From an uncultured Acidobacteriota bacterium (lineage in GTDB: Bacteria; Acidobacteriota; Thermoanaerobaculia; Multivoradales; JAHEKO01): DNA of 64,000 nt. The first letter of the stretch is position 1. Each line of letters begins with the position of its first letter. The notes beneath the pieces are model-generated. The model made no database searches. It worked only from the letters and a program-made list of their open reading frames with translations, and was not told the origin of the DNA. Positions 39,865 through 63,999 of this stretch are shown here, in pieces. The DNA is taken from contig CAVQNG010000004.1 of assembly GCA_963713825.1 (NCBI GenBank), positions 224,001 to 288,000 on the forward strand, given 5' to 3'. The position numbers and the translations under genes are program-made.

Positions 39865-39906
39865 TCTATTCGGCGGCCTGGACACTCTATTCGACGGCCT
39901 GGACAC
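39865..39906. repeat. Tandem 21-bp direct repeat (2 copies, 1 mismatch)
   Basis: TCTATTCGGCGGCCTGGACAC / TCTATTCGACGGCCTGGACAC. Confidence 0.85.
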
Positions 39907-40316: not shown

Positions 40317-42659
40317 ATGGCAGCAGGGCCCCGTCAAGGCAGGCCGGATCGCATGGTGACCAACAGCTCTGAGCTCGCCGCTCCCAAGAACGCTGGCCTC
40401 GACAGGGAGCTTCCAGCTGCCGATCCCCCGACGTCGCACAGACGACTCAGCCTGCTGTTGCCGTATTTGGCACTCGTCTTCCTCCACCTGCTCTCTGGCC
40501 TGCAGATGGAGCAGCCGCTCATCTTGGCCGACGAGCTCGGCTATCTCGGGAATGCTCGCTACCTTGCCGGGGCATCTCACCTGCCTGATATGCGGCACAG
40601 CCAGTTCTACCATTTCGGATATTCGCTGATCCTGATACCCGCCTTCTGGCTGTTCACCGATCCGGTCGCGATCTACAAGGCAGCGATGGTCATCAACGCG
40701 CTGCTGATGAGCGCACTCTTCTTCCCGGTGTACTCGATCCTGAGCTCGTTCCTCGAGGTCCCCAAAAGGACCGCGATCTGGATCAGTTTCGCTTGCAGTC
40801 TCTATCCGGCTGCGATGCTGTATTCGAACTTCGCCTGGGCGGAGAACGCTTTCATCCCGTTCTATGCCCTGACTGTGGCACTGATTGGGAGGTACCTTCG
40901 CTCCGGGTCCTGGCCCGATGTGACCATTTTCAGCTGCTGTGCCGCGTTCCTATACACCATTCATCCCAGAGGACTACCCGTCGTCGTCATCGTCGTCGTC
41001 TATCTTCTCGTTCTAGCGACCCTGAAAGTCGTCTCGAAGCGACAGGCACTACTGAGCGTCACGACCATCGGGTTGATCTTCGCAGCGACCCGAGTCGTCA
41101 ACGAGCATCTCAAGGCGATTGGCTGGAGGGGTACAGGTGAGTTCTCACTGACCCGATTGGGTGGAAGGCTCGTCCCGGGCAGCGACCTCCTCGTGTTGGT
41201 GCAGAGGGCCTTGGGCCAGCTCCTCTACCTGTCCCAGGCTACGTATGGACTGTTCCTCGTGGGTCTCGTGGCGGCGATCGGCTATGTCCTCAAGAAGATG
41301 GTCTCCGGCTCTCCAAGGCAGGCCATGTCGGACCCCAGAACCGGAGTGGCGGTCTTCTTGTTGATCACTGCCCCTGGCATCTTCCTTGCCTCACTGACCG
41401 TCAAGCTCTACAGCGTTTTCGGACCGGATGGCATTCGAGGGGCCGGCTTCATTCCCGGACGGTACAACGAAGCGTTTGCCGTCCTGTTTGTCGCCTTCGC
41501 CTTGGCGGAGCTTTGTCGGACTCAAACCGAAACTTCAAGAGCCGTCAAGCGTGCGATTGGCGTGACAGCTACGATGCTGGGCTTGACTGTGCTGACTATG
41601 GTCCACGTCAATACCTTCCTACAGAAGCTGGGCTCGGATTTGCCGGCAGATACGACCAGAAGGACAATCCCCGCGGCCCTGGTAGACACGCTGGATGTGC
41701 CGGGAGTCTTCCCCGTCATCGACCTGATTGGAGAGCTGAACCTCTACCTTGTGTCACTCGTTGCGATTGCCTTGTACCTCGCCACAACGATCACGACGAG
41801 GTATTCGTTACGCGCCGGAGCCGTCCTGCTGATGCTTGTCTTCTCTCAGTTCTCTCTCTACAACTATCGCCATTTCCTGCGACCGATCAAAGAAGATGCC
41901 GAGCCGCGACTCACCTTCGTTTCGCAGTTGTCTGGACTCGACCCGATCCCGGCCCTGAGCTACGACGATGGGTACTTCGATGCTCAGACTTTTTATGGAC
42001 TTCAGCACCTGCTACAGCGAACCGTGTTCGATCGATTCCACAGTCGCCGCGGAGAGACACCCCGATCCGAAGCGGTCATCAGCGCCAACCAGTGGCCGCA
42101 GGCGCCGAGAATCGGAGCCGAGTACTTTCTCAAGATCAGCAGCGTGGACAACGCCTTGTGGATTCTTCCAGGCGAGCTCCAGTCTCGACTTCCGGTCATG
42201 GCCTACGATGGCATGACGTTGGGAGCGGAACCAGCGATTCGCGTTCGGGAGCTCGGATTCCATGATCTTGAATGGGTCGCAGGAGTCCCGGCTCGTTGGA
42301 CCAATGGAGCCGCGAGCTTGAGAGTGTCATTGGATCCCGAGAACCCACCGCAGAGGGTCGAGGTCGAGATTCTCGCCTCCGGCCGCAGGGCGGGAGCCGA
42401 TCTCCAGATACTCACGAATGGTGTCGAGCTGTGGCGTGCACGGATTCCGGCCAATGAGTGGTCGAAGACGCTCAGCCTGAAACAGGTACCCATGGGCAAT
42501 GCACTACTCATCGAGCTCAACAGTGACACTTCGACCCCCGCTGCGAGCCTCGAGGGCTCTGCAGATTCGCGCCGCCTCGGCGTCATGGTCAAGGCCATTC
42601 GGTTGCAGACATCCGTCAGCGCCGATGGGCCGAGGGCAGTGAACAACAAGTCTCAATAG
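40317..42659 (+). CDS. Large polytopic GT-C-fold glycosyltransferase-like protein with C-terminal extracytoplasmic domain
   Basis: ADELGY acidic motif after TM1, WAEN, HPRG, about 12-13 TM segments, C-terminal RWTNG...DSRRLG; GGAGAGG RBS before ATG 40317. Confidence 0.65.
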   Translation: MAAGPRQGRPDRMVTNSSELAAPKNAGLDRELPAADPPTSHRRLSLLLPYLALVFLHLLSGLQMEQPLILADELGYLGNARYLAGASHLPDMRHSQFYHFGYSLILIPAFWLFTDPVAIYKAAMVINALLMSALFFPVYSILSSFLEVPKRTAIWISFACSLYPAAMLYSNFAWAENAFIPFYALTVALIGRYLRSGSWPDVTIFSCCAAFLYTIHPRGLPVVVIVVVYLLVLATLKVVSKRQALLSVTTIGLIFAATRVVNEHLKAIGWRGTGEFSLTRLGGRLVPGSDLLVLVQRALGQLLYLSQATYGLFLVGLVAAIGYVLKKMVSGSPRQAMSDPRTGVAVFLLITAPGIFLASLTVKLYSVFGPDGIRGAGFIPGRYNEAFAVLFVAFALAELCRTQTETSRAVKRAIGVTATMLGLTVLTMVHVNTFLQKLGSDLPADTTRRTIPAALVDTLDVPGVFPVIDLIGELNLYLVSLVAIALYLATTITTRYSLRAGAVLLMLVFSQFSLYNYRHFLRPIKEDAEPRLTFVSQLSGLDPIPALSYDDGYFDAQTFYGLQHLLQRTVFDRFHSRRGETPRSEAVISANQWPQAPRIGAEYFLKISSVDNALWILPGELQSRLPVMAYDGMTLGAEPAIRVRELGFHDLEWVAGVPARWTNGAASLRVSLDPENPPQRVEVEILASGRRAGADLQILTNGVELWRARIPANEWSKTLSLKQVPMGNALLIELNSDTSTPAASLEGSADSRRLGVMVKAIRLQTSVSADGPRAVNNKSQ

Positions 42660-42790
42660 CGCCAGATCCTGTGCCTCGAATCCGTACCATTCGGCTTCGT
42701 ATACCATGCGCTCTAGTAGATTCACCGACCGACGGGGTCTTTCAACGAGACGGTTTTCTTCACCCACCTCACGGCGAAACGCGCAGAAAG

Positions 42791-43546
42791 ATGCCGGCCC
42801 ACCGGATTCATTGCTCGTACCATAAGTGTCTGACGGTGTTGTACCGTCGCGTCATGGATGCGGTGATGAATCGGTGCCAACCCTGGGGCGCCGGCTATCG
42901 CCACTACAACAGCCATTTAGAGGACTTCTACCGCGGCTTTCGAAGGGACCGCGTCGCCTCGGTGAACAACCGGGCGCTCGATCTCGAGCGCCTTGGCGAC
43001 TTCCGGATCTCACGCTTCATCCGCGATCCGCGCGATCTCGTGGTTTCGGGCTACTTCTACCACAGGCGCGGGGCCGAAGCCTGGACAACGATCGAATCAC
43101 CAACTCCTGCCGACTGGTACTTCGCCAATGGTGTCATCCCCGAGGGCCTGCAGGCCGCGGGCAAATCCTTCGCGCAGTATTTGCAGTCGCTGCCGGAAGA
43201 GGAAGGGTTGTTGGCAGAATTGGAGTTTCGGGCCCTCCACTTCGAATCGATGGCCTGTTGGCCAACCGATCGCGCCGACATCGTCACCTATCGCTACGAA
43301 GAAATCCTAGGGCACGAGAGGGAGCTCTTCCAAGAGCTCTTCGAGTTCTACCAGCTGTCGCCTATCGAGCGCCGAATAGGCGGCTGGTTCGCCAACCGCT
43401 ACTCGATCGGGAGACGACGCACCGACCCTCACATTCGCAACCCGGCCTCCGGGCAATGGAGGAAACACTTCACGCCGAGGGTGAGGCAGGCCTTCGATTC
43501 CAGGTACGCGGCATTGGTCCGACAACTTGACTACCCGGCTTACTGA
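42791..43546 (+). CDS. PAPS-dependent sulfotransferase-domain protein
   Basis: SYHKCLT (PSB-like), IRDPRDLVVSGY, RYEE, HIR....GQWRKHFT. Confidence 0.8.
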   Translation: MPAHRIHCSYHKCLTVLYRRVMDAVMNRCQPWGAGYRHYNSHLEDFYRGFRRDRVASVNNRALDLERLGDFRISRFIRDPRDLVVSGYFYHRRGAEAWTTIESPTPADWYFANGVIPEGLQAAGKSFAQYLQSLPEEEGLLAELEFRALHFESMACWPTDRADIVTYRYEEILGHERELFQELFEFYQLSPIERRIGGWFANRYSIGRRRTDPHIRNPASGQWRKHFTPRVRQAFDSRYAALVRQLDYPAY

Positions 43547-43580
43547 GGACTGCAGCAACCCTGAAGATCATGCAGCACCA

Positions 43581-45026
43581 ATGGTTGACCTGATGGCTAC
43601 CACAACACGGAATCGGCAAGGCATGGCGGGTACCATTCTGATCGCAACGGCTGGTCGGAGCGGCATTCTCTACTCGAGCCTGGAGCTCGGGCGTCGCCTT
43701 GCCGCCGCCGACCACAAAGTCGTCTATGCCGGTCCGGACAACACTCGCCAGCTCGTCGACCATCATGGTCTCGGCTTCCTTGCACTGGAACCGAGCCGCT
43801 ATGACCGCTTCCTCGAAGCGGATACCGACGCCAGCGTCCGCCACCGGCTCGTGCACCTGCGCAGCCGCCGACAACGCGCCGCAGCGTCCACGGCCGTGAG
43901 CGGCTTCGTCGCGGCCGTGATGGCTCTGAATCCGCAGCTCGTGCTCCTCGACGGCGAGATGCACGAGCACATCATCGCGACGTCGGGTACAGGCGTACCG
44001 ATGGCCCTGCTCAACACCTTCGCCTCGATCTGGAAACAGCCGGGACTGCCACCTGCGCACCATCTGGTCCGTCCCGGCGTCGGATGGAAAGGATCCCGAG
44101 TCGGTATCTCGATGCTGTGGCTCGCGCTGCGGCTCCGAAAGTGGCGCACCGCCACCTCACAGACGGTTCGGCGGATCGGCTGCGACCGCCTGTCGATTCT
44201 GCGTCATCTGTCCCGCGAGGCTGGCTTCGATCTAAGCCGCGAAACCGACGACAGTCAGTGGCTGATCCCTTTCACCTACCGACGATTGCCAGTGCTGAGC
44301 TTGCACGCCCTGGAGTTCGAGTTTCCCCACCGTCCACCCGACCGGGTGCACTATGTCGGCCCAATGGTGCTCGAAGACCGCATCGACCGCCCGATGTCGA
44401 ACGAGGGCCGAGCCGAGCTCGACGATCTCTTGGCGAGGCGACGACGGGCCGAGGGTCGCCGAAAGATGATCTATGCCGGTTTCGGCTCGGTCTTTTCCAC
44501 CGATCTGGATCTCCTGAAACGCCTCGTTCAGGCCGTCGCGGATCGTCGCGATTGGGATCTGGTGATCACTCTCAGCGATCGGGTATCGCGCGGCGCGCTG
44601 GGCAAGCTGCCCGATACGGTTCTTGCGCTGCCCTGGGTTCCCCAGCTGCGAGTCTTGCGGGATGCCGACGTTTGTGTGACTCATGGCGGCATCAACACCA
44701 TCGACGAGTGCGTCTCTTTTGGAGTGCCGATGCTCGTCTACTGCGGCCACGAAACAGACATGGCGGGCAACACCGCCCGCGTCGTCCATCACGGCATCGG
44801 ACTCGCGGGTGATCGGAGACGAGACGACCCGGCGATGATCCGCCATCGGATCGAGCGCTTGCTGACCGAGCCGCACTTTGGCACCAGCCTGAGTCAGCTG
44901 CGTCGACGTTATGAGGCGTATGCCGAGAACCGAGTGGCGGAGCGGACCATCGAGTCCCTGCTTGGTCTCGAGACTGGAACCCCAGCCGCCATCCGCACCC
45001 AGACTCCAGGTGGTGCTCGCTCGTGA
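43581..45026 (+). CDS. GT1-family (MGT/UDPGT-like) glycosyltransferase
   Basis: VHYVGP, YAGFGS, WVPQL.VL..AD..VTHGGINT..E....GVPM; start uncertain (43581/43593/43623). Confidence 0.85.
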   Translation: MVDLMATTTRNRQGMAGTILIATAGRSGILYSSLELGRRLAAADHKVVYAGPDNTRQLVDHHGLGFLALEPSRYDRFLEADTDASVRHRLVHLRSRRQRAAASTAVSGFVAAVMALNPQLVLLDGEMHEHIIATSGTGVPMALLNTFASIWKQPGLPPAHHLVRPGVGWKGSRVGISMLWLALRLRKWRTATSQTVRRIGCDRLSILRHLSREAGFDLSRETDDSQWLIPFTYRRLPVLSLHALEFEFPHRPPDRVHYVGPMVLEDRIDRPMSNEGRAELDDLLARRRRAEGRRKMIYAGFGSVFSTDLDLLKRLVQAVADRRDWDLVITLSDRVSRGALGKLPDTVLALPWVPQLRVLRDADVCVTHGGINTIDECVSFGVPMLVYCGHETDMAGNTARVVHHGIGLAGDRRRDDPAMIRHRIERLLTEPHFGTSLSQLRRRYEAYAENRVAERTIESLLGLETGTPAAIRTQTPGGARS

Positions 45027-46480
45027 GCGACACCGCACGAAGGGTGGCCGCGGGGGCCGGTTGGCTCTATGGCTACCGATGGATCGAGAGGCTGCTCGAC
45101 TTCGTCTCGATCGTGGTGCTGGCGCGCATCCTGGCACCCGAGGACTTCGGCCTCGTCGCCATTGCGGCCTCCTTCGTGGCCATCATCGAAGGGCTGAGCG
45201 CATTCGACGTCAACAAAGCACTGATCCGAACACGCGACGAGCATCGATCGCTCTACGACAGTGCGTGGACCCTGTCTGCGCTGAGGGGCTTCGCAACTGC
45301 GCTGATCATGCTGGCGATCGCACCCTTCGTGACCGATGCTCGAATCAGCGCAGTGCTCGCGGTGCTCGCCCTCAGCCCGCTGATGACCGGGCTCTCCAAC
45401 CCTCGGTTCGTCATGTTCGAACGCGACCTGGTCTATTCCAAGCTCGCCATTCTGACGCTCGGGGCCAAAGTCGTCTCCTTCACGGTCACCCTGGTGCTCG
45501 CGTTGCTCTACCACAGCTACTGGTCGCTCGTGATCGGTCTGCTCGTCGGCGGTCTGATCACCATGATTCTGAGCTATGTCCTGAAGCCCTATCGTCCGAC
45601 TGTCTCGTTCTCCCGGTTCTCCGACATCTTCGCCTTCAGCGGATGGCTGTCGCTGACCAGCATCGTGACCACGCTGTCGATGGAGACCGACAAGCTCATC
45701 GTCGGCCGTTTGCTCGGAGTCGCCGACGCCGGCCTCTACTTCATGACCCAAAGAGTCGGAGTCCTCCCCACTCGAGAGCTGATCAGCCCGCTGCAGCGCA
45801 TTCTGCTGCCCTCGTTCAGCGAGCTGACCCACGACAGGCAACGGCTTCGTCGGGTGGCCTGCGAGTCGATCAACATCCTGGGTAGCCTCAGCATCCCGGC
45901 CGGCTTCGGGTTTGCCCTCATCGCCGCCGACTTCGTGCCGCTCACCCTGGGTGATCAATGGACTTCGATCGTGCCACTGCTGACGATCCTCGTTCCCTAT
46001 CTCGGCCTTCGGGCGACGCTGTCGATGACCTTGCCGTGCGTCATGGCGCTCGGCAAGACAAAGCTGCTGTTCTGGGTCAGTCTCGCCTACGCCTTCGTCC
46101 ATCTCCCCGCATTCATCGGTGGAACGGCCTGGTTCGGTCTGACCGGTGCCATCGTGAGCATCGTGCTGGCCGGAGTGCTGTACTCGTACTTGAACGCCTG
46201 GATGTTGAATCGAACGCTCGATATCTCTCTCCGCGAGATCCTGTCTCGAATCAAGAGGCCACTCCTGGCATCGCTGCTGATGGTAGGTGCCGTCTTGCTG
46301 CTCGACTGGCTCTTACCCACCGAGAGCCCTTCCGAGAGTGGATCCTGGCTGGCGCTTTTGCTCAAGATCGTCGTCGGAGGCGTAGCCTACAGTTCCGCCC
46401 TGTACGGGATGTGGCGTCTCGATGATCGACCCGAGGGCATCGAAAGACGTCTCCTGCAGCTGTTGGATCGCACTGACTAG
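45023..46480 (+). CDS. wzx: Wzx/PST-family oligosaccharide flippase
   Basis: VLARILAPEDFGLVA, SYWSLV, DKLIVGRLLG...GLY, LGDQW; about 12 TM segments. Confidence 0.85.
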   Translation: MSDTARRVAAGAGWLYGYRWIERLLDFVSIVVLARILAPEDFGLVAIAASFVAIIEGLSAFDVNKALIRTRDEHRSLYDSAWTLSALRGFATALIMLAIAPFVTDARISAVLAVLALSPLMTGLSNPRFVMFERDLVYSKLAILTLGAKVVSFTVTLVLALLYHSYWSLVIGLLVGGLITMILSYVLKPYRPTVSFSRFSDIFAFSGWLSLTSIVTTLSMETDKLIVGRLLGVADAGLYFMTQRVGVLPTRELISPLQRILLPSFSELTHDRQRLRRVACESINILGSLSIPAGFGFALIAADFVPLTLGDQWTSIVPLLTILVPYLGLRATLSMTLPCVMALGKTKLLFWVSLAYAFVHLPAFIGGTAWFGLTGAIVSIVLAGVLYSYLNAWMLNRTLDISLREILSRIKRPLLASLLMVGAVLLLDWLLPTESPSESGSWLALLLKIVVGGVAYSSALYGMWRLDDRPEGIERRLLQLLDRTD

Positions 46481-47646
46481 CGCTCGGCAAGAGCGGCGAA
46501 GGCACTCTCGGTCCGAGCCGCAATCGACGGCCAGGTGTGCTGTTCAGCGATCCGACGGCCGCCCTGAGCGAGTCGCGCTCGCAGCTCGCCATCGCCGAGT
46601 ACTTCGCACAAGGCTCTGGCCAGCGCCGTCGGCGAGTCGGGGGGAATGAGCCGGGCGCTGTCACCATCTCGAAGGGTACCGGGTAGTGCTCCGACGGTGG
46701 TGGCCACGACAGGCACACCCAGCGACAACGCCAGGTAGAGGACCCCGGACTGGCTGATGTGCCGATAGGGCATCGCCAGCACGTCGGCGGCCGCAAAGTA
46801 GCGCGACACCTCGGTGAAAGGGATGTACTCGAAGCGGTGAATCGCCCCGATTCGCTGCGCCCAGGAAGACAGCTCGTGGCGCCGAGCCTGACTCAGCCGA
46901 CCGGCATCGCCGGCGACGACCAGCCGTGCTCTGGGACGTGCTTCGACCACGTCCGGCCAGGCTTCGAGCAGGATATCCAAGCCCTTGTACTCACGAATGT
47001 AGCCGAAGAACAGGACCACCTCGTGGTCTTCGTCGAGGCCGAGGCTCTGTCGGGCCGAATCGCGAGCCAAGGGTCCGCCGTCGGGATTGAAGAATCCATA
47101 CTCCCCATGGGGGATCACCACCACCCGTTCAGGTTCGAGGGAGATCTCCTCGAGCAGTCTTTGCCGGTCGAAGTCGGAGTGAGCGACGACCAGTCGGCTG
47201 AGTCGATGCACGCGCCGAAAGAGGGCGTCGCGGAAAGGACGACGCTCGTGCGGGGTGACCACATGCGCCGTGGTCACGACCGGGGCCCCCACCAGCCGCA
47301 GGAGTGCGACAAAGAGCAGTGCGCTGCTATTTGTGCTGTGGACGTGGATCACGTCCGGTCGCAGGCGGCGCGCAAACGCGGCAACCGAGATAACATCGAA
47401 GACCGCCTCGACGCTGGTGGCCAGCTCCAGACTGCGCTGCGGCATCGCCCTACGATGCCGATGGGTGAAGCGTGCAAGCGTCTTGACCAGACGTAGATTC
47501 GACGGCAAGCTCCGGTCTTCGAGCTCGTAGGCGGCTGCCGTCACCAGGGTGACCTCATGACCGCGCTCAGCCAGCGCGCAGGAGAGATTGAAGGTGTAGT
47601 GGGTCAGTCCGCCGCGGCCAAAAGTCTCGATCTCGAGTATCCGCAT
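46477..47646 (-). CDS. GT4-family glycosyltransferase
   Basis: GHEVTLVT, VIPHG, FFGYIREYKGLD, PYRHISQSGV; start at ATG 47646. Confidence 0.88.
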   Translation of the reverse strand: MRILEIETFGRGGLTHYTFNLSCALAERGHEVTLVTAAAYELEDRSLPSNLRLVKTLARFTHRHRRAMPQRSLELATSVEAVFDVISVAAFARRLRPDVIHVHSTNSSALLFVALLRLVGAPVVTTAHVVTPHERRPFRDALFRRVHRLSRLVVAHSDFDRQRLLEEISLEPERVVVIPHGEYGFFNPDGGPLARDSARQSLGLDEDHEVVLFFGYIREYKGLDILLEAWPDVVEARPRARLVVAGDAGRLSQARRHELSSWAQRIGAIHRFEYIPFTEVSRYFAAADVLAMPYRHISQSGVLYLALSLGVPVVATTVGALPGTLRDGDSARLIPPDSPTALARALCEVLGDGELRARLAQGGRRIAEQHTWPSIAARTESAFAALAER

Positions 47647-47796
47647 CTGGCAACTCGCAGCGCTGTTGCGAACCGTGACCGCAGTTCTGCGCCACTCGGC
47701 TCTACCGCCGGATCGTACCATCGCCGCGGGAGGTGCCGAAAAGAGTCGCGCTCGATAGACTGGAACCGATTCTCGACCAGATCGCAGATCCGTCCC

Positions 47797-51846: not shown

Positions 51847-51847
51847 C

Positions 51848-53591: not shown

Positions 53592-53601
53592 TACCCTTAC
53601 G

Positions 53602-54375: not shown

Positions 54376-54381
54376 CCGACC

Positions 54382-57300
54382 TCAAGCGGGCGGCTCGACC
54401 CCTTCTGCAATTCGTCCGCCGTCGTCCTCGGTCAGCTCCGCGACATCAGCGAGGATCTTCTCTTCCGCAATCCGGGCTAGCCTTCCCAGCGTCGTATGCG
54501 AGAACAAGGACTCCAAGGGAAGGTCGATGTCGAACTCACGACAGAGCTGGAGCATGACCTGCATGGCGGCCAGAGAGGTACCACCGAGCTCGAAGAAATC
54601 ATCGTCGGCCCCCACAGTGTCGACTTCCAGCTCCTGCTGCCAAGCTTGGCCCAGAAACTCCTCCACCGGACCTTCGAGCTCTCGGAACGGCTTTTCCCTA
54701 GGCCTTTGATAGACCTCCGATCGAAGCGCTTCCTCGTCGACCTTGCCGCTCGCCGTCAAGGGGATGGTGTCGACACGCTGAAGATGGGTGGGGATCAGAT
54801 AGGGCGGTAAGCGCTCACCGAGCTGGCTCGAGATCGTGTCGACGGATATGTCCTCAGCGCAGACAACGAAGGCCTCGAGAGCGACCTGATCGGAATGCGT
54901 CGAGAGTCGCTCGACGTCATATCCAATCTCCCTCAGCATCGTCTTCACGTCATTGACGTCGATGTCGTCGTCGAGCTCGGCGAGAGCCGCCGCTCGGGTC
55001 TTGTGCCCCAGACGAACGTCCCAGCTGTAGGGCAGAGCGTAGTTGTGGAAGCCGCGCTCACGGCGATGGACGTAGATCCCCACGTCATTGATCAGGCAGT
55101 TGGTCGAGCGTCCCGTGTCCTCAGGGCGCACCCAGGGCACCTTCTGCCGCAGGTAGGCGTACATCTCGTCCAGACCGACATCCACATAGCGGAAGAAATC
55201 AACGAACTGGACCGCCCGGAAGACCTCGTCATCCTCGAACACCGCAGTACCGAGTGCGCGCGTCACCTCGTCACGAACCCTGTGGTAGACCTTGCGCGCC
55301 GCCAGCACAGCTGCATCGACCTCGTCCGGACTGCGAAGCCCGTCGCGAAACATGTCCTCGACGAGTCGCGTCTCGAACATCTGTCCCCTCGACAGACCAG
55401 TGACAATGATCGGAATTCCCAGCTCACGCGCTCGCTTCATGCTCAAGGTGTAGATCGTCTTGAAGCAGCCGTTGCAGACATTCGAGAATCGCATCAGACT
55501 GTCGCGAAAGATCGCGTTCATCGCTCGGGTCGTGGCGAGCTCGACTGGAACACCGAGCTGCTGGGTCACCCTTCGGACGTTGTCCTTGGCGCCTTCGGAA
55601 ATGAACCCATTGTCGAGGCTGAAGGCATAGACCGAAAGCCCCATGTCCACCAGCCGACACAGAGCGTAGGTGCTGTCCTTCCCACCGCTGTAGAGCATCA
55701 AGCAGTCGTAGGGCGCGTCATGTTGTCGGGCCGACTCCTCGAAGATTCGACTCAGGTCCTCTTCACTCTTGAAGTAGGCCTGAGCGTGCTCCTTGATCGA
55801 CTCGTAGGAGCGGCAGATGCTGCAGACGCCCGCCTCGTCGAGAGCTGCTCGAGGGTAGTTCGACGGCAGACCGCAGCGCACACAGTGGCGCAGCTGCTGA
55901 TCCAACTCGAGCGTCACGACAGGATGGCGACGCGCCACGACGGCACATTCGTCGATCCCTGCAATCGAGAGCAGTGCCGTTTCGATCTCCCCAGGCTCGA
56001 CGCGGAAGCCCGACACCTTGAGTTGGCGGTCGAATCGACCGAGATACTCGAGCTTGCCGTCGTCGAGCATTCGAACCTGATCGCCGGTTCGATAGCGGCG
56101 CTGCGCCGGATGCGCCGGATGCTCCTGGAAGCGTTGCTGGGTAATCTCGTCCGGGCCGTGGTAGCCGCGCGCCAGACCGTAACGGGAGATCCACAACTCA
56201 CCCGGAACCCCGACCGGCACCGCGGTCAATGCTTCGTTCAAGACCTCCACGGTGACATGGTCTGCAGGAACGCCGATGGGAACGCTCAGGCCTCTATCGC
56301 TCGAGGAATCGTAGCGGTGGGCCACGCAACCGACGACGGCCTCCGTAGGGCCGTACTCGTTGTAGAGCTCGACTCGATCCTGGAGCCCGGCGACCAGCCG
56401 CGCTGCGAGCTCCGTTCTCAGGTTCTCTCCACCGGCGACGATGCGACGAACCCGAGAACCTTCAAGACCCATGCTTTCGAGCAGTGACAGATGCGACGGC
56501 GTCAACTTGATGAAATCGACCGCGTTGGTCTCGACGACGTCCTGTAGCGCGGTGTCCACTGGCCCATCCGGTTCCGGGTAGATCTCGAGGCAACCCCCCG
56601 TGATCAGCGGTAGAAAAAGGCTGGTGACCGTCAGATCGAACGCCATCGAGGTGACGAGCGGGAAGGTGAAACGCTCACCCCGCACATACTGGCGGTCCGC
56701 CCAGCAGAGATAGTCCACCAGGCCGCCATGCTCGATGAGGACACCCTTCGGCTTGCCGGTGGATCCCGAGGTGTACATCAGGTAGGCCAACTCGTCGAGG
56801 CCTGGGACTTCTCGATCCAGGGGTGTCCCGCTCCCGGAGCCCAGCGCCTCGGCGATCGACAGCTGGTCGGCTCCGGAGACCTGGGGCTCGACCCCTCCGA
56901 GATCGCCGAGCAGCAGGAGTCGAGCGCCAGAGTCCGCGACAATCTGGTCCAATCGTGCCTGTGGGGTTCTGGCCTCGATGGGCACGTAGGCGGCTCTTGC
57001 ACGCAAGGTAGCGAGAATCGCGACCACGGCCAGAGACGACCTCCGACTCAAGATGGCGACACGGTCTCCCGGTTCGACGCCTCCTGCGACGAGGACCGCG
57101 GCGAGTTCTTCCATCTGGTCACGGAGGCCGGCGTAGGTCGTTTCGACTCCTCCCTGGCGTAGTGCCACCCGGCCGGGGTGGCGCTCCGCCTGGGCTTCGA
57201 ACATCTCGATCACCGATCGTTCAGGCAGCGGCTGCGAATCGGTGGCATTGAGAGTGGCCAGTACCTGTCGCTCTTCAGCGACTAGCAGGTCGACCTCGGC

Positions 57301-58617
57301 GATCGGCCGATCCGGATCCTCCAGCAGCGCCGCCAACAGAATCTCGAAGTGCTCGAGGCTGCGGCGACGCAGTCGCTCAGGCAGCGCCCTCTCGTTGTAG
57401 TCGAAATGCAGCGTGTAACCGCCAGTCCCCGAGAAATCGTGCACCTGGACTCGGAGGGCATGTACGCTGTCACCATGCCCCGGATGCACCCAGTCGACTT
57501 CGACCGGACAACCTGCGAAATCGCTGAACGCCGACGGAAAGTAGTTGAGTACCACGTTGCTCGCCGCGGCACTGGAGGGAGCGCTGCTCCCGGGTAAGGC
57601 GTGAACCAGGAATCGCCGGGCTTCCTCGAGACAGCGGGCTCCGAGTGAGAGGAACGTGTCGCCCGACTCGACTCGCGCCGCAAAGGGAAACAGTTCGATG
57701 AACAGACCCAGAGAGCGCTTGGCGTCCGGCGTCGGGCGACCGGCGATCGGGGCATCGAAACTCAGTTCCTGCCATCCGCTGATCCGGTGGAGCCAGCTCA
57801 CCAGGAGCGTGGCGAAAAGTGCGAATCGAGAAATCTCCGCCGACAGGCTCGAAAAACCGTCCTGCTCGCAGAGTCGATCGAGAGCCCTCGACCGCCCCTC
57901 GCCGAGCTCGAGGCTCAACCGTCGACTGACCGTGCCGACCGGGCGCCCGTCACGACCGTAGAAGGACACCGAACGCCCAGCACGTTCACTGCGGGCTGCC
58001 CAATGCTCTTCGGCCTCGGATCGGGTCTCCGCCGAACCGCGTTGCAGAGAGTCAGCGGTCGGATAGTAGTCGGCGAGACTGGCGCGCTCGGCTGGCACAT
58101 CACCACCGCTCCGCGACTGGTACTCGGCCCCGACCTCGCGAAACAAAAGCTGCGTCGACCAGGCGTCGGTGATGAGATGGTGTTGATTCAGGTACCACCC
58201 GGTGCGGCCCTTTCCCAGACGGACTAGGACGCTGTCGATAAGTGCGCCCTCGAGCGACAGTGCTTTGGCGCAGCGCTGGTGGCACCAACTCTTGAACTCG
58301 TCGAGCGGTTCGGACCGCGAGGTGAAGTCGAGCACCTCAGTGGGCGTCGTGTGCTCTGCGAGCTGGATTCGTACTCCTCCACCTTCCTGCTCGACCAACC
58401 GAGTCCGCAACGCGTCGCTGCGTTCCACGACGCGTCGCCAGGCTTCACAAAACAGCTCCGTCTCGAGCTCCGCAGGAAAAACGAACGCGAAGGCCATGTT
58501 GTACAGCGGACTGCCCGGATTGAGCCTTTGTCCAAGCCATATCTGTGTTTGGCTGTGGGTCAGCTCAATACTGGCGGCTCCGAGATCGCCCATTTCGCTG
58601 TTGGTGGTGGCTGTCAA
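54382..58617 (-). CDS. NRPS C-A-T with Asn-type A domain (DLTKVGEVGK) interrupted by an AANH/PP-loop (AlbIV/CysH AMDH-like) domain
   Basis: C: HHLITDAWS; A: YTSGSTGKPKG, FDLTVT, NEYGPTE, YRTGD; ~335-aa insert with CVRC, CSIC, SGGKDS, CNGC, STNC; A10 ASGKVD; T: FFELGGTSL; start TTG 58617 after AAGGAG (alternative ATG 58593). Confidence 0.9.
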   Translation of the reverse strand: MTATTNSEMGDLGAASIELTHSQTQIWLGQRLNPGSPLYNMAFAFVFPAELETELFCEAWRRVVERSDALRTRLVEQEGGGVRIQLAEHTTPTEVLDFTSRSEPLDEFKSWCHQRCAKALSLEGALIDSVLVRLGKGRTGWYLNQHHLITDAWSTQLLFREVGAEYQSRSGGDVPAERASLADYYPTADSLQRGSAETRSEAEEHWAARSERAGRSVSFYGRDGRPVGTVSRRLSLELGEGRSRALDRLCEQDGFSSLSAEISRFALFATLLVSWLHRISGWQELSFDAPIAGRPTPDAKRSLGLFIELFPFAARVESGDTFLSLGARCLEEARRFLVHALPGSSAPSSAAASNVVLNYFPSAFSDFAGCPVEVDWVHPGHGDSVHALRVQVHDFSGTGGYTLHFDYNERALPERLRRRSLEHFEILLAALLEDPDRPIAEVDLLVAEERQVLATLNATDSQPLPERSVIEMFEAQAERHPGRVALRQGGVETTYAGLRDQMEELAAVLVAGGVEPGDRVAILSRRSSLAVVAILATLRARAAYVPIEARTPQARLDQIVADSGARLLLLGDLGGVEPQVSGADQLSIAEALGSGSGTPLDREVPGLDELAYLMYTSGSTGKPKGVLIEHGGLVDYLCWADRQYVRGERFTFPLVTSMAFDLTVTSLFLPLITGGCLEIYPEPDGPVDTALQDVVETNAVDFIKLTPSHLSLLESMGLEGSRVRRIVAGGENLRTELAARLVAGLQDRVELYNEYGPTEAVVGCVAHRYDSSSDRGLSVPIGVPADHVTVEVLNEALTAVPVGVPGELWISRYGLARGYHGPDEITQQRFQEHPAHPAQRRYRTGDQVRMLDDGKLEYLGRFDRQLKVSGFRVEPGEIETALLSIAGIDECAVVARRHPVVTLELDQQLRHCVRCGLPSNYPRAALDEAGVCSICRSYESIKEHAQAYFKSEEDLSRIFEESARQHDAPYDCLMLYSGGKDSTYALCRLVDMGLSVYAFSLDNGFISEGAKDNVRRVTQQLGVPVELATTRAMNAIFRDSLMRFSNVCNGCFKTIYTLSMKRARELGIPIIVTGLSRGQMFETRLVEDMFRDGLRSPDEVDAAVLAARKVYHRVRDEVTRALGTAVFEDDEVFRAVQFVDFFRYVDVGLDEMYAYLRQKVPWVRPEDTGRSTNCLINDVGIYVHRRERGFHNYALPYSWDVRLGHKTRAAALAELDDDIDVNDVKTMLREIGYDVERLSTHSDQVALEAFVVCAEDISVDTISSQLGERLPPYLIPTHLQRVDTIPLTASGKVDEEALRSEVYQRPREKPFRELEGPVEEFLGQAWQQELEVDTVGADDDFFELGGTSLAAMQVMLQLCREFDIDLPLESLFSHTTLGRLARIAEEKILADVAELTEDDGGRIAEGVEPPA

Positions 58618-58624
58618 CGGCGAT

Positions 58625-58930
58625 TCACTCCTTGAGGCCGGCTGGGGTGCTCTGCTCAGCAGACTCGACGCTGCCACGGACATAGTCAGCGAGCACTGCG
58701 ACGCTCTGGAAGTTCTCGACGACGAAGCCCGAAGACTGCAGGTCGACCTGGAACTCCTTCTCGACGAAGGCCGCCAGACGCAGCGCGCCGATCGAGTCGA
58801 GCACTTCCCCCGTCAAGAGGTCGTCATCGCGCTCGATCGTCGTTTCCGGGGCCAGCAACTCGCGCCGCAGGAACTCGAGTATCCTGACCTCGATGTCTCC
58901 AATCGACAGCCCAGCTTCGCTCTCAGTCAT
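58625..58930 (-). CDS. Stand-alone carrier protein (PltL-like PCP/ACP)
   Basis: DDDLL.GEVLDSIG...FVEKEF...ENFQSV. Confidence 0.88.
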   Translation of the reverse strand: MTESEAGLSIGDIEVRILEFLRRELLAPETTIERDDDLLTGEVLDSIGALRLAAFVEKEFQVDLQSSGFVVENFQSVAVLADYVRGSVESAEQSTPAGLKE

Positions 58931-60515
58931 CCTGTTGCCCTTCCTTCTGCGCCAATCGCTGTCGCAGGGCATTGCGGTCAATCTTGCCGGTCGGCGTCCG
59001 CGGCATGGCCTCGACGACCGTGATGTCCTCCGGCAAGCTGTGTTGAGGCAGAACGCTCTTCAATCGAGAGAGGACGTCACGGCGTCCGGGCCACCCGCGG
59101 TCCGCGACCACCACCACCGACTGAAGAGCCCAGCTTCCCTCTCCGTCCGGGACGGTGAAAGCAGCGGCCTCCTCGACCGGATCGAGTGTCAGCAGCGCCA
59201 TCTCGATCTCCTCGAGCTCCACACGGTGTCCCCGAATCTTGACCTGGCGATCGGCCCGTGTGACAAACGTCAGATTGCCATCTGCGCGCACCCGGACCCT
59301 GTCCCCGGTGCGGAAGTAGATCTCTTCGAGGTCGCCACCGACCGGCCGCCGAATCAGGACTTCGCGGCTGCGCTGCGGTTCGCCCCAATAGCCCGACATG
59401 ACCGTCGAACCGCGGACAAGCAACTCCCCCACCTCGCCATCGGGTACCGAACGAAGCTCGCTATCGACAACCGCGGTGCTCGAAGTCCAGCACGCCTTAC
59501 CGATGGGAACCGGGTTCTCGAACGACTCCCCCTCGGGCAGATGGTAGTAGGTACAGACATTGACCTCGGTCGAACCGTAGACGTGACTGAAACGAGCCTC
59601 CGGCAGCTGTCTTTTGATCCGGCGTAGGTGCTTGTTGGGAAAAATCTCACCGGCGAAAAGGACCCATCGCAGGCAGGACAAGTCTCTCGCCTCGAGATCG
59701 CCGCGCACCGACAGCTGAACGAGGGCGGTGGGCACCGAGTACCACACCGAGACTCGCTCCTTTTCGAGCCCGGCCGAGAGGCTGCCGGGCATCATCAGCA
59801 TGGCCGGCGTCAAGATCACGGTGGTAGCGCCGGCACGGGCAGCGGCGTAGTAGTCGAAGGTGGCGAAGCAGGTGTGATGCGACGAGTGGTTGCTAAGGCG
59901 ATCGTCACCGTTCAATGAATACTCATCGACAGCCCAGTCGACGAAGCTCATCGCGCTCCGATGCGTGTGGAGAATCAGCTTCGGGGTGCCAGTCGTGCCC
60001 GAGGTATGAAGGATGTAGGACGGATCCATGTCGATGACCTCGACGCCGGGTGGCCGGTCGGTGGCCGCCTCGGAGACGTCCGACCATGGATGGCATCGTC
60101 GAGGCCTGTCGGTCTCGGCCGCCTCCAACCCCACTACATGTTCCACCCATGGACAGCGCTCGAGTACATTGACCACGAGCTGTTGCTTGCCCGGTTCCGT
60201 GACGAGATACCTGGCTCCGGTAGCCCGCAAGATCCGAGCGACCCTCTCGACTGGAGATCGGGGATCAATCGGCACCAGGACTCCGCCCGCCGCGAGCACC
60301 CCGTAAAAGCCCACGGGCACCTTCAGTCCTTTACTGAGCAGGACCGCGACGCGGTTCCGGCGCTGCAGTCCGGCCTCCAATAGGACTCCTGCAAGGCCGT
60401 TCGAGTGCCGGGCCAGCTGCTCGTAGCTCAAGGCCTCGCCATCACAGCGGACGGCGCAAGCGTCGGGATGACGCAGTGCGGCCTCGTCGATCATGCGGTG
60501 GACCAGCATTACCAT
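58923..60515 (-). CDS. Stand-alone adenylation enzyme, PltF/RedM-like, with altered pocket (CFFYLAVVCK)
   Basis: YILHTSGTTGTPK, SFVDWA, VWYSVPTAL, VLFAGE.FP, TEVNVCTYY, FRTGD, PTGKIDR; GGAGG RBS before ATG 60515. Confidence 0.85.
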   Translation of the reverse strand: MVMLVHRMIDEAALRHPDACAVRCDGEALSYEQLARHSNGLAGVLLEAGLQRRNRVAVLLSKGLKVPVGFYGVLAAGGVLVPIDPRSPVERVARILRATGARYLVTEPGKQQLVVNVLERCPWVEHVVGLEAAETDRPRRCHPWSDVSEAATDRPPGVEVIDMDPSYILHTSGTTGTPKLILHTHRSAMSFVDWAVDEYSLNGDDRLSNHSSHHTCFATFDYYAAARAGATTVILTPAMLMMPGSLSAGLEKERVSVWYSVPTALVQLSVRGDLEARDLSCLRWVLFAGEIFPNKHLRRIKRQLPEARFSHVYGSTEVNVCTYYHLPEGESFENPVPIGKACWTSSTAVVDSELRSVPDGEVGELLVRGSTVMSGYWGEPQRSREVLIRRPVGGDLEEIYFRTGDRVRVRADGNLTFVTRADRQVKIRGHRVELEEIEMALLTLDPVEEAAAFTVPDGEGSWALQSVVVVADRGWPGRRDVLSRLKSVLPQHSLPEDITVVEAMPRTPTGKIDRNALRQRLAQKEGQQDD

Positions 60516-60648
60516 CTGTCGCTTTCCGACCTCCCGTCCACGGGATCGGCCAGCGAGCAGCACACCGTGGCAGTCACTGCCAGGCGCGATCCTTCGAGAC
60601 AACACCACCCGGTCGAGGACGACCGAACTAGGGCCGCAAGAGAAGCGT

Positions 60649-61923
60649 TCATGGACTCACCGTTCGGAGCAGCGATTTCACCCGCTTGGTCAAATGGAAG
60701 TCGAGGCCGAAAGCCCGTTCGACCATCCAAACACAAGACACCAGAATCATCACGATGGCGGCCACCGGCAAGACCAGATTGCGGTAGATGGCCACCCTCC
60801 GTATCAGAAACAGCGCCGGGAACAACACTGCCACGATGAAGAGGACACCAACTCCGATTCCCAGATCGAACGCGAAGAGAGACAGGCCGAAGTTCTCGCC
60901 GAGGACGCCGAGACCCGAGATCGCAGCAGCGAAACCGAAACCATGAAACCAGCCGCAGACCAAGACGACGATCCACTTCCGACTTCGAAACAGTGGGATC
61001 AGGATGTTGGCCGCTGCCAGTGCCACCGTCAAGGCAATGGCCACCTCGACCAGACGCTCCGGCAGACGGAGCGCTCCCAGCGCAGCGAGGGCCAGCGTCA
61101 GGCTGTAACCGACGATGTAGGCGACAACCAGCTTGGCGAGATCGAGAAACGCCGGCTTGAACTCATCCACCGGCTGCCATGCTCCGTCGGTCCCGCGGAC
61201 CAGCACTGCCGGCAACAGCAATGCGATCAGGAACAGAGCGTGGTCGAAGCCGAACAGCATGTGCTCGAGCCCCAGGACCAGAACCGCGATGAATCCACGC
61301 AGTCGACCCGAGGAAGTCAAATCGAGCTGCTGACGTCGACCGCCAGAGCTGAAGACCAACGCAATCTGGTTCTCGTTCGCGAACGTCCCTGTTGCCCAGT
61401 TGTGCTCGATCAGCAGGTAGCCGCGGTGGTCGGGATCCTCATCCAAGAGGACCGAATAGTCGACGGTCAGAACGTCGGGAACGTCGTCGAAGCCACTGAG
61501 GTCGAAGGAGAGCAGGGCAAAACCATCGTGGGCCTGGAGATACTCGTGGGTGGTGAATTCGATGGCCAGAGGTCCCTGCTCTGAGGACAGCTTCACGTGT
61601 TCGAGGTAGTAGTCGTGCAGAAAGCCGATTCTCGCGTCGAGGTTGTCCTCCGTGATCTCGCCCTCAGTACCCGAAAACCCGAGCGCCGGATTCAGGTCCG
61701 AGAGCGCTATCTCGAAGCGTCCGCCCAGGCTTTCCGGGTAGACCTGGAGATAGAGGTAGCTCTCGCCCGTGTTGTGAGCACCCATCGGACCCGTCGAAAA
61801 GGCGATCAACGCGATGCAGAGCATCCACCGCAAGGCCTTACCGACCGGTGTCGAAGCGGTTGGAGCTATGCGGCGTTCTGCTGCCGTCGGCTTGGTTCTG
61901 TAAAACAGTTCGAGTCCGCTCAT
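60649..61923 (-). CDS. HupE/UreJ-like membrane protein with N-terminal extracytoplasmic domain
   Basis: Signal ...GAH, LGLEHMLFGFDH.LF, SLTL.LA, VE.AIA, HGFGFA, F.LG; its ATG overlaps the upstream stop. Confidence 0.78.
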   Translation of the reverse strand: MSGLELFYRTKPTAAERRIAPTASTPVGKALRWMLCIALIAFSTGPMGAHNTGESYLYLQVYPESLGGRFEIALSDLNPALGFSGTEGEITEDNLDARIGFLHDYYLEHVKLSSEQGPLAIEFTTHEYLQAHDGFALLSFDLSGFDDVPDVLTVDYSVLLDEDPDHRGYLLIEHNWATGTFANENQIALVFSSGGRRQQLDLTSSGRLRGFIAVLVLGLEHMLFGFDHALFLIALLLPAVLVRGTDGAWQPVDEFKPAFLDLAKLVVAYIVGYSLTLALAALGALRLPERLVEVAIALTVALAAANILIPLFRSRKWIVVLVCGWFHGFGFAAAISGLGVLGENFGLSLFAFDLGIGVGVLFIVAVLFPALFLIRRVAIYRNLVLPVAAIVMILVSCVWMVERAFGLDFHLTKRVKSLLRTVSP

Positions 61924-63065
61924 CCGAGCCCCCTGAGTCCAGCAATCAGATTTCGTTGGATCTCGGAAGTACCGACGTAGAGTGTCGTGGCGAGGGCGTC
62001 ACGCAGCTCTCGCTCCAGTTCGTAGTCGACCATGTATCCGTAGCCTCCGAAGATCTGCACCGCACTGCGACAGATCGCCACGTACGCCTCGCTAGTGGCG
62101 AGTTTGGCGAGGGCCGACTCCCGGGCCGCAATACCGTGAGCCGACCGATGCCAGGCGGCCCGGTACAGCAAGAGACGAGCCGACTCCAGCTGTAGCTCCA
62201 TATCGGCGATGCAGTGGGCAATCGACTGATGGCTGCCGATCGGAACCGAGCCTGCAGTTCGCTGGCGAGCATGATCGACACAGCGCTCCAAGATCCGCTG
62301 CATCACCCCGACAGCCGGAGCCATCACCAGTATCCGCTCCACATCCATCGTATGGTTGAAGATCATCATCCCGGAACCGATCTGCCCCACGACTGCCGAG
62401 CCCGAAACGCGAGAATTCTCCAGAAAGAGTTGTGACATCGGACTGGTTCGCAGTCCCATCTTCTCGATCGGTTCTCCCACCGTCAGCCCTGCGGTGTCCC
62501 TGGGGATCAGGAAGCAGCTGAGACCAGCCAAACCGCTGCCTCCCGTCCGAGCGTAGATGATGAAGAGATCCGCTACCGGAGCGTTGGTGACAAACGTTTT
62601 CGATCCGTTCAGGATCCAGTCTCCATTCTCCTCGACCGCCGTGGTCTCGAGCGCGAATGCGTCCGAACCCGAGTTCGGTTCCGTGATTCCGGTGGCACCG
62701 ATCGCAGTGCCCGATGCCAACCGTGGCAGCCACTCGTCCTTTTGCGCGTCACTTCCGAACGCACAGAGCGGGCCGGCACACGACGCGGCATGCGCGGTGA
62801 CCGAGAAGACCAGTCCGTTGTCCAGAGCCCCATACCCGGCGCCCTCGAGCACAGCGACAGCGGTCAGCAGATCGTGCCCCGTGCCCTGCCATTGCTCGGG
62901 GATCATGATGCCCTGCAAGCCGAACTCGGCGCACGCATCCCACAGCTCTCGAGAGAACCGGCCGGCGCGATCGCGCTCGATCACTGCGTCGACCAGGCGA
63001 CTCGAGGCAAACTCCACGGCGCCGCGGTTTAGCCTCGTTTGGTCATCGGTCCAGTCGAACTCCAC
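61920..63065 (-). CDS. Acyl-CoA dehydrogenase family, prolyl-PCP dehydrogenase-like (PltE/RedW/AnaB)
   Basis: GYGALDNGLVFS..AH...C..P...FG, TEPNSGSDA, KMGLRTSP, M..ER, GGYGY, GTSEIQR; GGAGG RBS. Confidence 0.85.
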   Translation of the reverse strand: MEFDWTDDQTRLNRGAVEFASSRLVDAVIERDRAGRFSRELWDACAEFGLQGIMIPEQWQGTGHDLLTAVAVLEGAGYGALDNGLVFSVTAHAASCAGPLCAFGSDAQKDEWLPRLASGTAIGATGITEPNSGSDAFALETTAVEENGDWILNGSKTFVTNAPVADLFIIYARTGGSGLAGLSCFLIPRDTAGLTVGEPIEKMGLRTSPMSQLFLENSRVSGSAVVGQIGSGMMIFNHTMDVERILVMAPAVGVMQRILERCVDHARQRTAGSVPIGSHQSIAHCIADMELQLESARLLLYRAAWHRSAHGIAARESALAKLATSEAYVAICRSAVQIFGGYGYMVDYELERELRDALATTLYVGTSEIQRNLIAGLRGLG

Positions 63066-63201
63066 TTGTCCTCCGATCCGAGATTCGGCCTGTGCTCAGA
63101 CTCTCTGTGCCGGGCCCTTCTGCGTTTCGCCCCTACCGCCGTGCGCCAGGCGCGCTCGATTCCTGCGCAGCCCTGACGCTGTGGGCCCGAATCGAATTAG
63201 G

Positions 63202-63210
63202 ATTATGACA
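63202..63210 (-). promoter_or_regulatory. Putative extended -10 promoter (TGtCATAAT) for the starter/NRPS operon
   Basis: TG-N-CATAAT on the minus strand ~135 nt upstream of GTG 63065. Confidence 0.35.
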
Positions 63211-63237
63211 CCACTCGTGCGGCATGGCGGGGGTGGC

Positions 63238-63999
63238 TCAAGGCGGCTTCAATGGCCCTTCGAGGCCTACCGTTCTCGGGGTCCAGTCCCGCAGGCTGAT
63301 GGTCGCATCCGGCTGAGTCACGGCCAAAGCCGCTGCGAAGCCCGGGGCGACTCTCAAGCGGTGCACGAAGCCCTTCGTCTCTGAGTCGCGGGGGTCCACC
63401 CCTACGACCTCGGCGTGGGTGTCATCGGAAACGAGACGGATCTCGAAGCGGCTGAGCGGCACGGACAGACCTCCACCTCGAGCCTTGACCCAGGCTTCTT
63501 TGCACGTCCAGTAGTCGAAGAACAGTAGGGATCGGACCTCGGGTAGCGCCGCGGCGATCGCGGCGGCCTCGGCTGGCGTGAAGTACCTCGAGGCAATCTC
63601 GGTGTGGTCCATGTCGTCTCGGATCTTCTCCAGATCGATACCCAATTCCCGGCGCACGGCGACTGCGAGCAGAGCCATCCCATGGGAATGACTCGTATTG
63701 AAGCCGAGGTCCTCCCATGCCCTCTTGCCGACCAACCGAGGCTTGTCCTGAGGACCGTAATCGAAGCGAAGATTCCGCGGATTCTCCTGCAGGTAGAGGG
63801 CGAGCACGGTGCGGAGCTGTCCCCGACGCACGATGAAGTGCCGACGAAGCTCCTGGAACGAGAATCGCGACGCCCTGTGCAGCTCGTCTTCACTCAACAG
63901 CGACCTCAGGGAATGCACGACCCCATCGGACACGCTCAGAGAGGCGCGCCAGACGTGCACCTGGGTGTCGGTCAGATCAGGGCTGGAGGATTCGCTCAA
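63238..63999 (-). CDS. Sfp-type 4'-phosphopantetheinyl transferase (5' end at window edge)
   Basis: LSEDE..RA.RF, FNTSHS, LGIDLE, FF..WTCKEA.VKA.G.GL. Confidence 0.92.
   Translation of the reverse strand: MSESSSPDLTDTQVHVWRASLSVSDGVVHSLRSLLSEDELHRASRFSFQELRRHFIVRRGQLRTVLALYLQENPRNLRFDYGPQDKPRLVGKRAWEDLGFNTSHSHGMALLAVAVRRELGIDLEKIRDDMDHTEIASRYFTPAEAAAIAAALPEVRSLLFFDYWTCKEAWVKARGGGLSVPLSRFEIRLVSDDTHAEVVGVDPRDSETKGFVHRLRVAPGFAAALAVTQPDATISLRDWTPRTVGLEGPLKPP

Follow-up and report, generated by a model that had tools for sequence, protein, structure and literature searches.

The window analysed here is a stretch of 64,000 nucleotides from an uncultured Acidobacteriota bacterium of the class Thermoanaerobaculia (contig C4, positions 224001-288000; genome 96% complete). 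Between approximately 40.3 and 64.0 kb it carries 15 open reading frames (ORFs) that join a nonribosomal peptide synthetase (NRPS) line to a flippase, glycosyltransferases (GTs) and sulfotransferases (STs). The NRPS and glycan genes are inherited together as a unit, and the system is real, conserved and, as far as searched, uncharacterised: a variant of glycosylated NRPS systems whose starter domain is unusual and which has a flippase of its own. From its sequence, the assembly line is predicted to read X-Asn*-His-TE, in which X is a starter acid, Asn* a modified asparagine and TE a thioesterase. The preferred interpretation, with a probability of roughly 0.45, is that the cluster makes a metal-binding tripeptide (an acyl-dipeptide) that is glycosylated, optionally carries sulfate and methyl groups, and is exported by the flippase.

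All 15 ORFs are stop-free and lie in the order given by the first-pass annotation, a reading made from the sequence alone. Pfam backs 14 of the 15 gene labels, and the exception, the GT-C-like gene, is backed by a structure model. The genes form four blocks on alternating strands and not a single operon: GT-C, ST1, GT1 and wzx (block 1, +); GT4 (block 2, -); NRPS-His, the methyltransferase (MT), ST2 and GT2 (block 3, +); and the phosphopantetheinyl transferase (PPTase), dehydrogenase (ACAD), HupE, stand-alone adenylation (A) domain, carrier and NRPS-Asn (block 4, -). The tight junctions described earlier agree with the coordinates, as NRPS-His ends at 51846 and MT starts at 51848, MT and ST2 overlap by 23 bp, ST2 and GT2 are 10-16 bp apart, and GT1 and wzx overlap by 4 bp. 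The predicted features, with condensation and carrier domains abbreviated C and T, are as follows.

40353..42659, +, GT-C-fold membrane glycosyltransferase, accessory, with a DE motif after the first transmembrane segment (TM1) and a C-terminal beta domain (model and Foldseek)
42791..43546, +, sulfotransferase ST1, an optional trio with ST2 and MT (PF00685 over cut-off)
43581..45026, +, GT1 glycosyltransferase of natural-product type (PF06722)
45023..46480, +, Wzx/MOP flippase (PF13440, E 1.5e-67)
46477..47646, -, GT4 glycosyltransferase (PF00534, PF13439)
47797..51846, +, NRPS-His, C-A(His)-T-TE, last module (Pfam; code DSALIAEVW)
51848..52702, +, class I S-adenosylmethionine-dependent methyltransferase, optional, coupled to NRPS-His (PF13489)
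52680..53591, +, sulfotransferase ST2, optional (PF13469, E 1.7e-25)
53608..54375, +, soluble GT2 glycosyltransferase (PF00535)
54382..58617, -, NRPS-Asn, C-A(Asn)-T, middle module (Pfam; code DLTKVGEVG)
approx. 54913..55890, -, AMDH insert within the Asn A domain, with Zn-ribbon, SGGKD PP-loop and CxxC (TIGR03573 below cut-off)
58625..58930, -, stand-alone carrier protein (PF00550)
58923..60512, -, stand-alone A domain with a PltF-like pocket and Asp235 replaced by Cys, codon ~59868-59870 (best PDB match PltF, 6o6e)
60649..61923, -, HupE/UreJ_2 membrane protein, putative Ni/Co-type permease with an N-terminal soluble domain (PF13795)
61920..63065, -, PltE/PigA/RedW-like acyl-carrier dehydrogenase, ACAD (NCBIfam PigA 357 and RedW 349 bits, both below cut-off)
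63238..63999, -, Sfp-type PPTase, loosely attached; the ORF start may be window position 64044 (PF01648)

The PPTase marks the end of the cluster because a redoxin, a Lys/Ala-rich basic repeat protein and a class II ribonucleotide reductase come next, and these genes rule out the continuation past the window edge that had been considered.

A scan with the insert of the Asn module returned at least 401 relatives, of which the best 80 were kept. Eighteen loci were extended to 36-54 kb, and four more were added (three re-fetched and one new, incomplete); loci L108, L110, L128 and L130 were left out as wrong contigs, and five of 87 loci were left out of the tree. Gene order and content recur in the 18 extended loci and in the four further loci. 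NRPS-Asn is present in all 18 extended loci, the starter A domain, GT2, NRPS-His, Wzx and GT1 in 17 each, ACAD in 16, HupE, the carrier and GT4 in 15 each, ST1 in 12, ST2 and MT in 11 each and the PPTase in two, some of the missing genes being due to frameshifted or incomplete assemblies. The PPTase also adjoins the cluster in genomes G279 and G031. In 301 genomes drawn evenly from the class, the Cys-type starter A domain (73-100% identity) occurs in seven, and Wzx orthologues (64-100%) occur in the same seven, with all other Wzx matches at or below 30%. Five of the six non-self genomes among these seven duplicate loci of the insert scan. GT1 and HupE are likewise found together, in the same ten genomes. 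Chance adjacency is rejected on the restriction of the Cys235 A domain and Wzx to the same seven genomes and on the recurrence of the gene set. The Cys/glycan loci form a single clade with 99% support, and the seven genomes span five families, which indicates one fusion kept across these families and not many independent events. Where contigs were of sufficient length, glycan genes accompanied each Cys235-clade member seen. Spread of this clade across phyla by transfer is not claimed, as locus L021, titled Deltaproteobacteria, falls in the window's own order (G315); Pseudomonadota and Actinomycetota also occur in the clade, as record titles only. The proposed co-conservation of the NRPS with wzx and GT-C stands for Wzx (17/18 loci) and not for the GT-C orthologue (5/18).

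Both synthetases start with a C domain and only one has a TE, so the order is predicted to be carrier-bound starter, Asn module and His module; module layout, codes and insert agree with the starter-(modified Asn)-His order of the first-pass annotation. The His-module code (DSALIAEVW) is found in 36 modules, and DSALIAEVWK is listed for His (PMC12283262). The Asn-module code is DLTKVGEVG, and its one-residue variant DLTKIGEVGK is given as compatible with cyanoalanine in the same source. The C-domain His/Asp, the carrier serines and the TE Ser/His are invariant in 12 (NRPS-His) and 13 (NRPS-Asn) orthologues, including the HH and D of the Asn-module C domain (13 rows) and TE residues Ser1160 and His1326 (12 rows). 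The TE resembles solved TEs only distantly (best E 2e-4) and is conserved like the A domain, with a mean pairwise identity within the clade of 60% against 50% for C.

Late in the Asn-coded A domain there is an insert of about 330-340 residues, which is the most conserved domain of the line (73%). SGGKD and the other CysH core motifs are invariant in 13 rows of Asn-module orthologues, and the insert motifs match the CysH AMDH sequence (PMC7966384 supplement) in a comparison made by eye with no scored alignment. The idea of a new domain was rejected, as the insert is an AMDH of the cystobactamid/albicidin type. Such domains yield beta-cyanoalanine or isoasparagine and have many orphan homologues (PMC7966384). 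As in CysH and AlbIV, the insert sits in an A domain specific for Asn and shows SGGKD with the same motifs downstream (by eye). Its host in this cluster is an elongation module (C-A-T) within a tripeptide line, whereas theirs is a stand-alone donor module; a CysJ-like hydroxylase is absent among the 15 genes.

The stand-alone A domain, free carrier and acyl-CoA-dehydrogenase-like oxidase occur together, as in the PltF/PltL/PltE and PigI/PigG/PigA triads. The best PDB match of the pocket region is PltF (6o6e), with positions 278, 299, 301, 330 and 331 equal to PltF, and ACAD is nearest to PigA/RedW among the NCBIfam models. The triad differs from the known ones in having Cys at 235 in place of Asp, Phe at 236 and 239 and Val at 322, and in scoring below the cut-off of both NCBIfam models. 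The code CFFYLAVVC is present in 115 of the 120 best homologues, and Cys235 in 119, the last one being unparsed. The 60 starter-A rows from the loci comprise 24 with Cys, 34 with Asp and two misassigned (L010 and L071, NRPS pieces, were left out). A cyclodeaminase gene occurs in 23 loci, none of them of the Cys type. Asp235 is the alpha-amine ligand and is replaced in hydroxy- and aryl-acid A domains, with exceptions such as McyG, which binds Phe without Asp235 (PMC11253843). The presence of Cys at this position across the whole clade makes a plain pyrrolyl starter doubtful, and the PltF-like pyrrolyl-type starter proposed earlier is not supported. Judging from these pocket residues, X is likely a ring acid that is either non-amino or N-blocked; speculative candidates are an oxygen ring acid, pyroglutamate and a sugar-derived acid. 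The predicted A-domain structure confirmed the fold only and was uninformative on substrate. The Cys235 A domain, in a pocket of the proline type, departs from the A-domain code in a fixed way and lends itself to assay on its own. In the cell-anchored variant treated below, the Asp235Cys switch, which was fixed on the branch that also carries the glycan genes, would point to a new non-amino starter and to its oxidation by a PltE-type enzyme. A different triad system is seen in the window's family (L152:6826-13870, genome G287), where a membrane protein, carrier, A domain, ACAD and sulfotransferase-like genes lie together with no NRPS nearby.

The NRPS core (ACAD, A, carrier, Asn-AMDH module, His module and HupE) extends well beyond this clade. 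It is found in records titled Bacteroidota, Cyanobacteria, Verrucomicrobiota, Actinomycetota, Pseudomonadota and others, widely without most of the glycan genes; HupE/UreJ is retained as a rule, and GT1 or a TonB receptor often is. The occurrence of the NRPS genes without glycan genes was thus confirmed for the core at large, which lacks Wzx, GT2, GT4 and the sulfotransferases in many phyla, and not for the Cys235 clade. Among 44 loci of the Asp235 clade, 12 have GT1, 12 have the TonB receptor family and four have an unrelated Wzx after the NRPS; locus L082 has Wza/Wzc/Wzy_C. The L082 finding, like those on L080 and L041 below, comes from a scan of 73 of 133 unlabelled proteins, and misses in the 44 loci are not absences because the flanks are only 10 kb. 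The core is also present on two roseobacter plasmids within a polysaccharide region: on the Roseovarius plasmid (L003:14360-29560) it has a fused two-module synthetase, a flippase and a capsule-type region, and a near-identical cassette lies on a Pseudohalocynthiibacter plasmid (L004). In L148/L149 (G303) and L150/L151 (G207), an Asp235-type core is followed by GT1, an epimerase, UDP-glucose dehydrogenase, an unrelated Wzx and GT2, which represents a further NRPS-glycan fusion within this class, distinct from the first. Asp235-type clusters also feature two radical SAM genes, one B12-binding (L053:741-7231), and a recurring protein of ~565 residues with no Pfam or NCBIfam match (L026:16637-18343, with relatives in L025, L036, L042, L043, L077 and L084). 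In L042, L068, L072, L076, L077 and L084, an unannotated gene of 220-260 residues splits the His module. Cultured carriers of the Asp235 core are Neolewinella xylanilytica DSM 29526, Agaribacillus aureus BMA12 and Roseovarius pelagicus HL-MP18, so the core product can be sought now.

HupE/UreJ_2 is the most constant accessory gene, present in 57 of 82 loci, although it plays no part in the model of the first-pass annotation. It occurs in ten of the 301 class genomes, in nine with the NRPS starter A domain and in the tenth adjoining GT1; L080 has a PF04955 HupE/UreJ near the cluster in place of the PF13795 type. One TonB receptor family is encoded near 8/18 clade loci and 12/44 other loci. Together with the invariant terminal His, the constant HupE/UreJ and the recurring receptor point to metal capture. 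Xaa-Xaa-His is a Cu/Ni site (ATCUN). Contig C3 of this genome encodes a TonB receptor (L138:8503-10647) 83% identical to the receptor adjoining the cluster in L020, and L041 contains an OEP/HlyD/AcrB efflux set.

On the glycan side, the best PDB matches of GT1 are Kcn28, OleD and CalG, which are of the small-molecule type. NRPS-His sits inside the glycan half, coupled to MT-ST2-GT2. ST1 orthologues are 63-76% identical, and ST1, ST2 and MT are jointly absent in L016, L017, L018, L030 and L034; four of these five loci form one branch, and L018 is outside the tree. The flippase and glycosyltransferases are features of a Wzx/Wzy-type locus, and no initiating phosphoglycosyltransferase, polymerase or ligase was found among the 15 genes or the recurring flank families scanned, which cover part of the flank genes. 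Nine PF02397 phosphoglycosyltransferase matches are present elsewhere in the genome. A PRK07208 oxidoreductase, a protein with two transmembrane segments and a second GT2 are found in 13, 12 and 12 of the 18 loci, respectively; in this genome they sit on contig C25 (746189-751146; L137:8189-13146) beside a second Wzx-type flippase, and these three genes adjoin the NRPS cluster in most relatives. The oxidoreductase as a specific part of the system is weakened by its presence in 48 of the 301 genomes.

The GT-C-like protein (768 residues) has no Pfam or NCBIfam match, and the only PDB sequence matches of its profile were spurious K-channel ones. Its structure model (pLDDT 92) confirms the GT-C fold named in the first-pass annotation: the top Foldseek matches are Emb (EmbA/B/C), ArnT, AglB and PglB (E 5e-9 to 3e-4), AftD is matched as well, and Atlas gives 0.99 to PMT_2/GT39 clusters. 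Emb, ArnT and oligosaccharyltransferases all match at TM-scores of 0.3-0.42, which does not separate a ligase or oligosaccharyltransferase from an enzyme that transfers single sugars. In the acidic motif after TM1, in the first external loop, D60 is invariant and E61 nearly so (90 rows). The gene is accessory. Its orthologue is found in 5/18 extended loci, with any match in 12 of 26 genomes and a strong one (E 1e-169 or better) in nine, and the genome is rich in such genes anyway (22 PMT_2 matches), so the suggested role of this GT-C as a core attaching enzyme is not supported. Other large membrane genes fill the flanking slot, and only some have GT-C-type Pfam matches (PMT_2 or DUF2142). The flank families f27, f35, f51, f52 and f30 do not match the GT-C profile; the first four have no Pfam match over the cut-off, f27 giving only EpsG at E 0.04.

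In the preferred interpretation, the stand-alone A domain would load a small ring acid X, without a charged alpha-amine, onto the free carrier, and the PltE-like enzyme would oxidise it. The Asn module, as its code indicates, would add Asn, which AMDH, by homology, would convert to beta-cyanoalanine or isoasparagine. By its code, the His module would add His, and the TE would release or transfer X-Asn*-His. GT1 may put the first sugar on the peptide, with extension by GT2 and GT4 and decoration by the optional ST1, ST2 and MT. The dedicated Wzx would export the glycoconjugate, perhaps borne by a lipid whose priming genes lie outside the cluster, and GT-C enzymes may add optional late sugars. 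Gene context suggests that the X-Xaa-His core would bind Ni, Cu or Co outside the cell, with import of the metal by HupE/UreJ and the TonB receptor.

Several points weigh against this glycosylated metallophore. Wzx normally needs a lipid-linked substrate and the 15 genes contain no initiating transferase. The acylated N-terminus would be without the ATCUN amine, and HupE could instead feed the metal-bearing AMDH domain. HupE/UreJ proteins are described as nickel transporters (PMC4771312), and these data concern the family at large and not the PF13795 protein here. The TonB receptor is unlinked in this genome (C3), a simple 8-mer and palindrome scan of the regions preceding ACAD (16 sequences) and NRPS-His (nine) detected no regulator box in common, and there were no Rfam matches. 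The co-occurrence counts are not independent because the clade is one evolutionary event. A rather improbable variant is a cell-anchored metallophore, in which X-Asn*-His would be grafted by the TE or GT1 onto a lipid-linked sulfated oligosaccharide and flipped by Wzx as a metal-trapping envelope glycan feeding HupE/UreJ, in one Thermoanaerobaculia clade. In the model of the first-pass annotation, the tripeptide is borne by a lipid-linked oligosaccharide, which Wzx would flip and a GT-C enzyme would pass on to a surface acceptor. Taken to mean a protein, lipid or polysaccharide modified for a structural or recognition role, with the atypical TE acylating the glycan, this model is doubtful but keeps some weight. 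The dedicated Wzx, a TE conserved as much as the A domain, the inclusion of oligosaccharyltransferases in the GT-C fold, the large membrane genes of the flanking slot, some of them PMT_2 or DUF2142, the PRK07208 oxidoreductase with its two neighbours, the nine phosphoglycosyltransferase matches, the unrelated Wzx in 4/44 other loci and the Wza/Wzc/Wzy_C set of L082 would all fit it. It is opposed by the scarcity of the GT-C orthologue in the loci, the abundance of GT-C genes in this genome, the four slot families without GT-C profile or Pfam matches (f27, f35, f51 and f52), the wide distribution of PRK07208, the small-molecule type of GT1 and a HupE left unexplained. The nearest precedents, Ram29 and carenaemin, yield free glycopeptides.

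These precedents would suit a freely secreted glycopeptide, an antibiotic or signal with no metal role, exported by Wzx while HupE supplies the metal of a biosynthetic enzyme. Although diffusible, carenaemin requires an O-antigen-like locus that includes Wzx (PMC8313283), and Ram29, a membrane enzyme that uses a polyprenyl-phosphosugar, acts on an NRPS product that is secreted (PMC4635501). AMDH domains occur in antibiotic pathways, the brown colour of CysH suggests a metal cofactor (PMC7966384), and the occurrence in 7/301 genomes is patchy. Such a product is nevertheless judged improbable, as it does not account for the repeated presence of the TonB receptor or for a terminal His that is invariant across phyla, and no recurring resistance gene was seen in the flanks. 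The four blocks on alternating strands, the core without most glycan genes in many phyla and the separation of the two halves by other genes in L011, L029, L040 and G279 could also mean an NRPS operon and a surface-glycan operon that share one island and no common product. This is very unlikely, given the position of NRPS-His within the glycan half and its coupling to MT-ST2-GT2, the Cys235 A domain and Wzx orthologue that are never apart in 301 genomes, and a GT1 that tracks the NRPS family beyond the clade.

Outside the cluster, a secreted protein with no Pfam or NCBIfam match is encoded at 39078-40085 (-), divergent from the GT-C gene and not conserved beside the cluster. An archaeal-type (type II) GAPDH-like gene, below the NCBIfam cut-off, lies at 36204-37268 (-), and just beyond the window a 210-residue Lys/Ala-rich repeat protein (L001:4648-5280, -) is histone-like by eye.

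The product may be a metal-catching molecule with a sugar coat, of a type that has yet to be isolated, and the analysis ties an orphan NRPS family across many phyla to a testable function, Ni/Cu/Co capture. Mycobacterial glycopeptidolipids also carry a short NRPS peptide that is glycosylated by GT1 enzymes, methylated and located at the surface, with a fatty-acyl starter and MmpL export, and salmochelin is a metallophore glycosylated by a GT1 (IroB), in that case a catecholate iron carrier. Neither is known to use Wzx, AMDH or HupE/UreJ. In agreement with the first-pass annotation, no cluster of this composition was found described in the open-access literature at the level of titles and abstract openings. 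Ram29 of ramoplanin resembles the GT-C gene as a membrane glycosyltransferase that uses a polyprenyl-phosphosugar and is encoded in an NRPS cluster, whereas ramoplanin is a large secreted lipopeptide of an actinomycete, with no Wzx, GT1/GT2/GT4 set or sulfation in the available part of its report (PMC4635501). Carenaemin of Collimonas arenae Cal35 differs in its two unlinked loci, hybrid polyketide synthase/NRPS, Gln/Ser/Leu residues, pyruvylation, initiating transferase and Wzy; its structure is unresolved, and the available text does not report AMDH, HupE, the GT1 triad or sulfation (PMC8313283). It is alike in its three-residue NRPS core and in a production dependent on an O-antigen-like locus with Wzx, for which its authors propose that the peptide is joined to a repeating sugar unit and then flipped, with Wzx as the export route of the peptide-sugar (PMC8313283). 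One branch of the NRPS family described here is predicted to be tied to glycan export by a flippase, which in the sources available has so far been proposed only for carenaemin.

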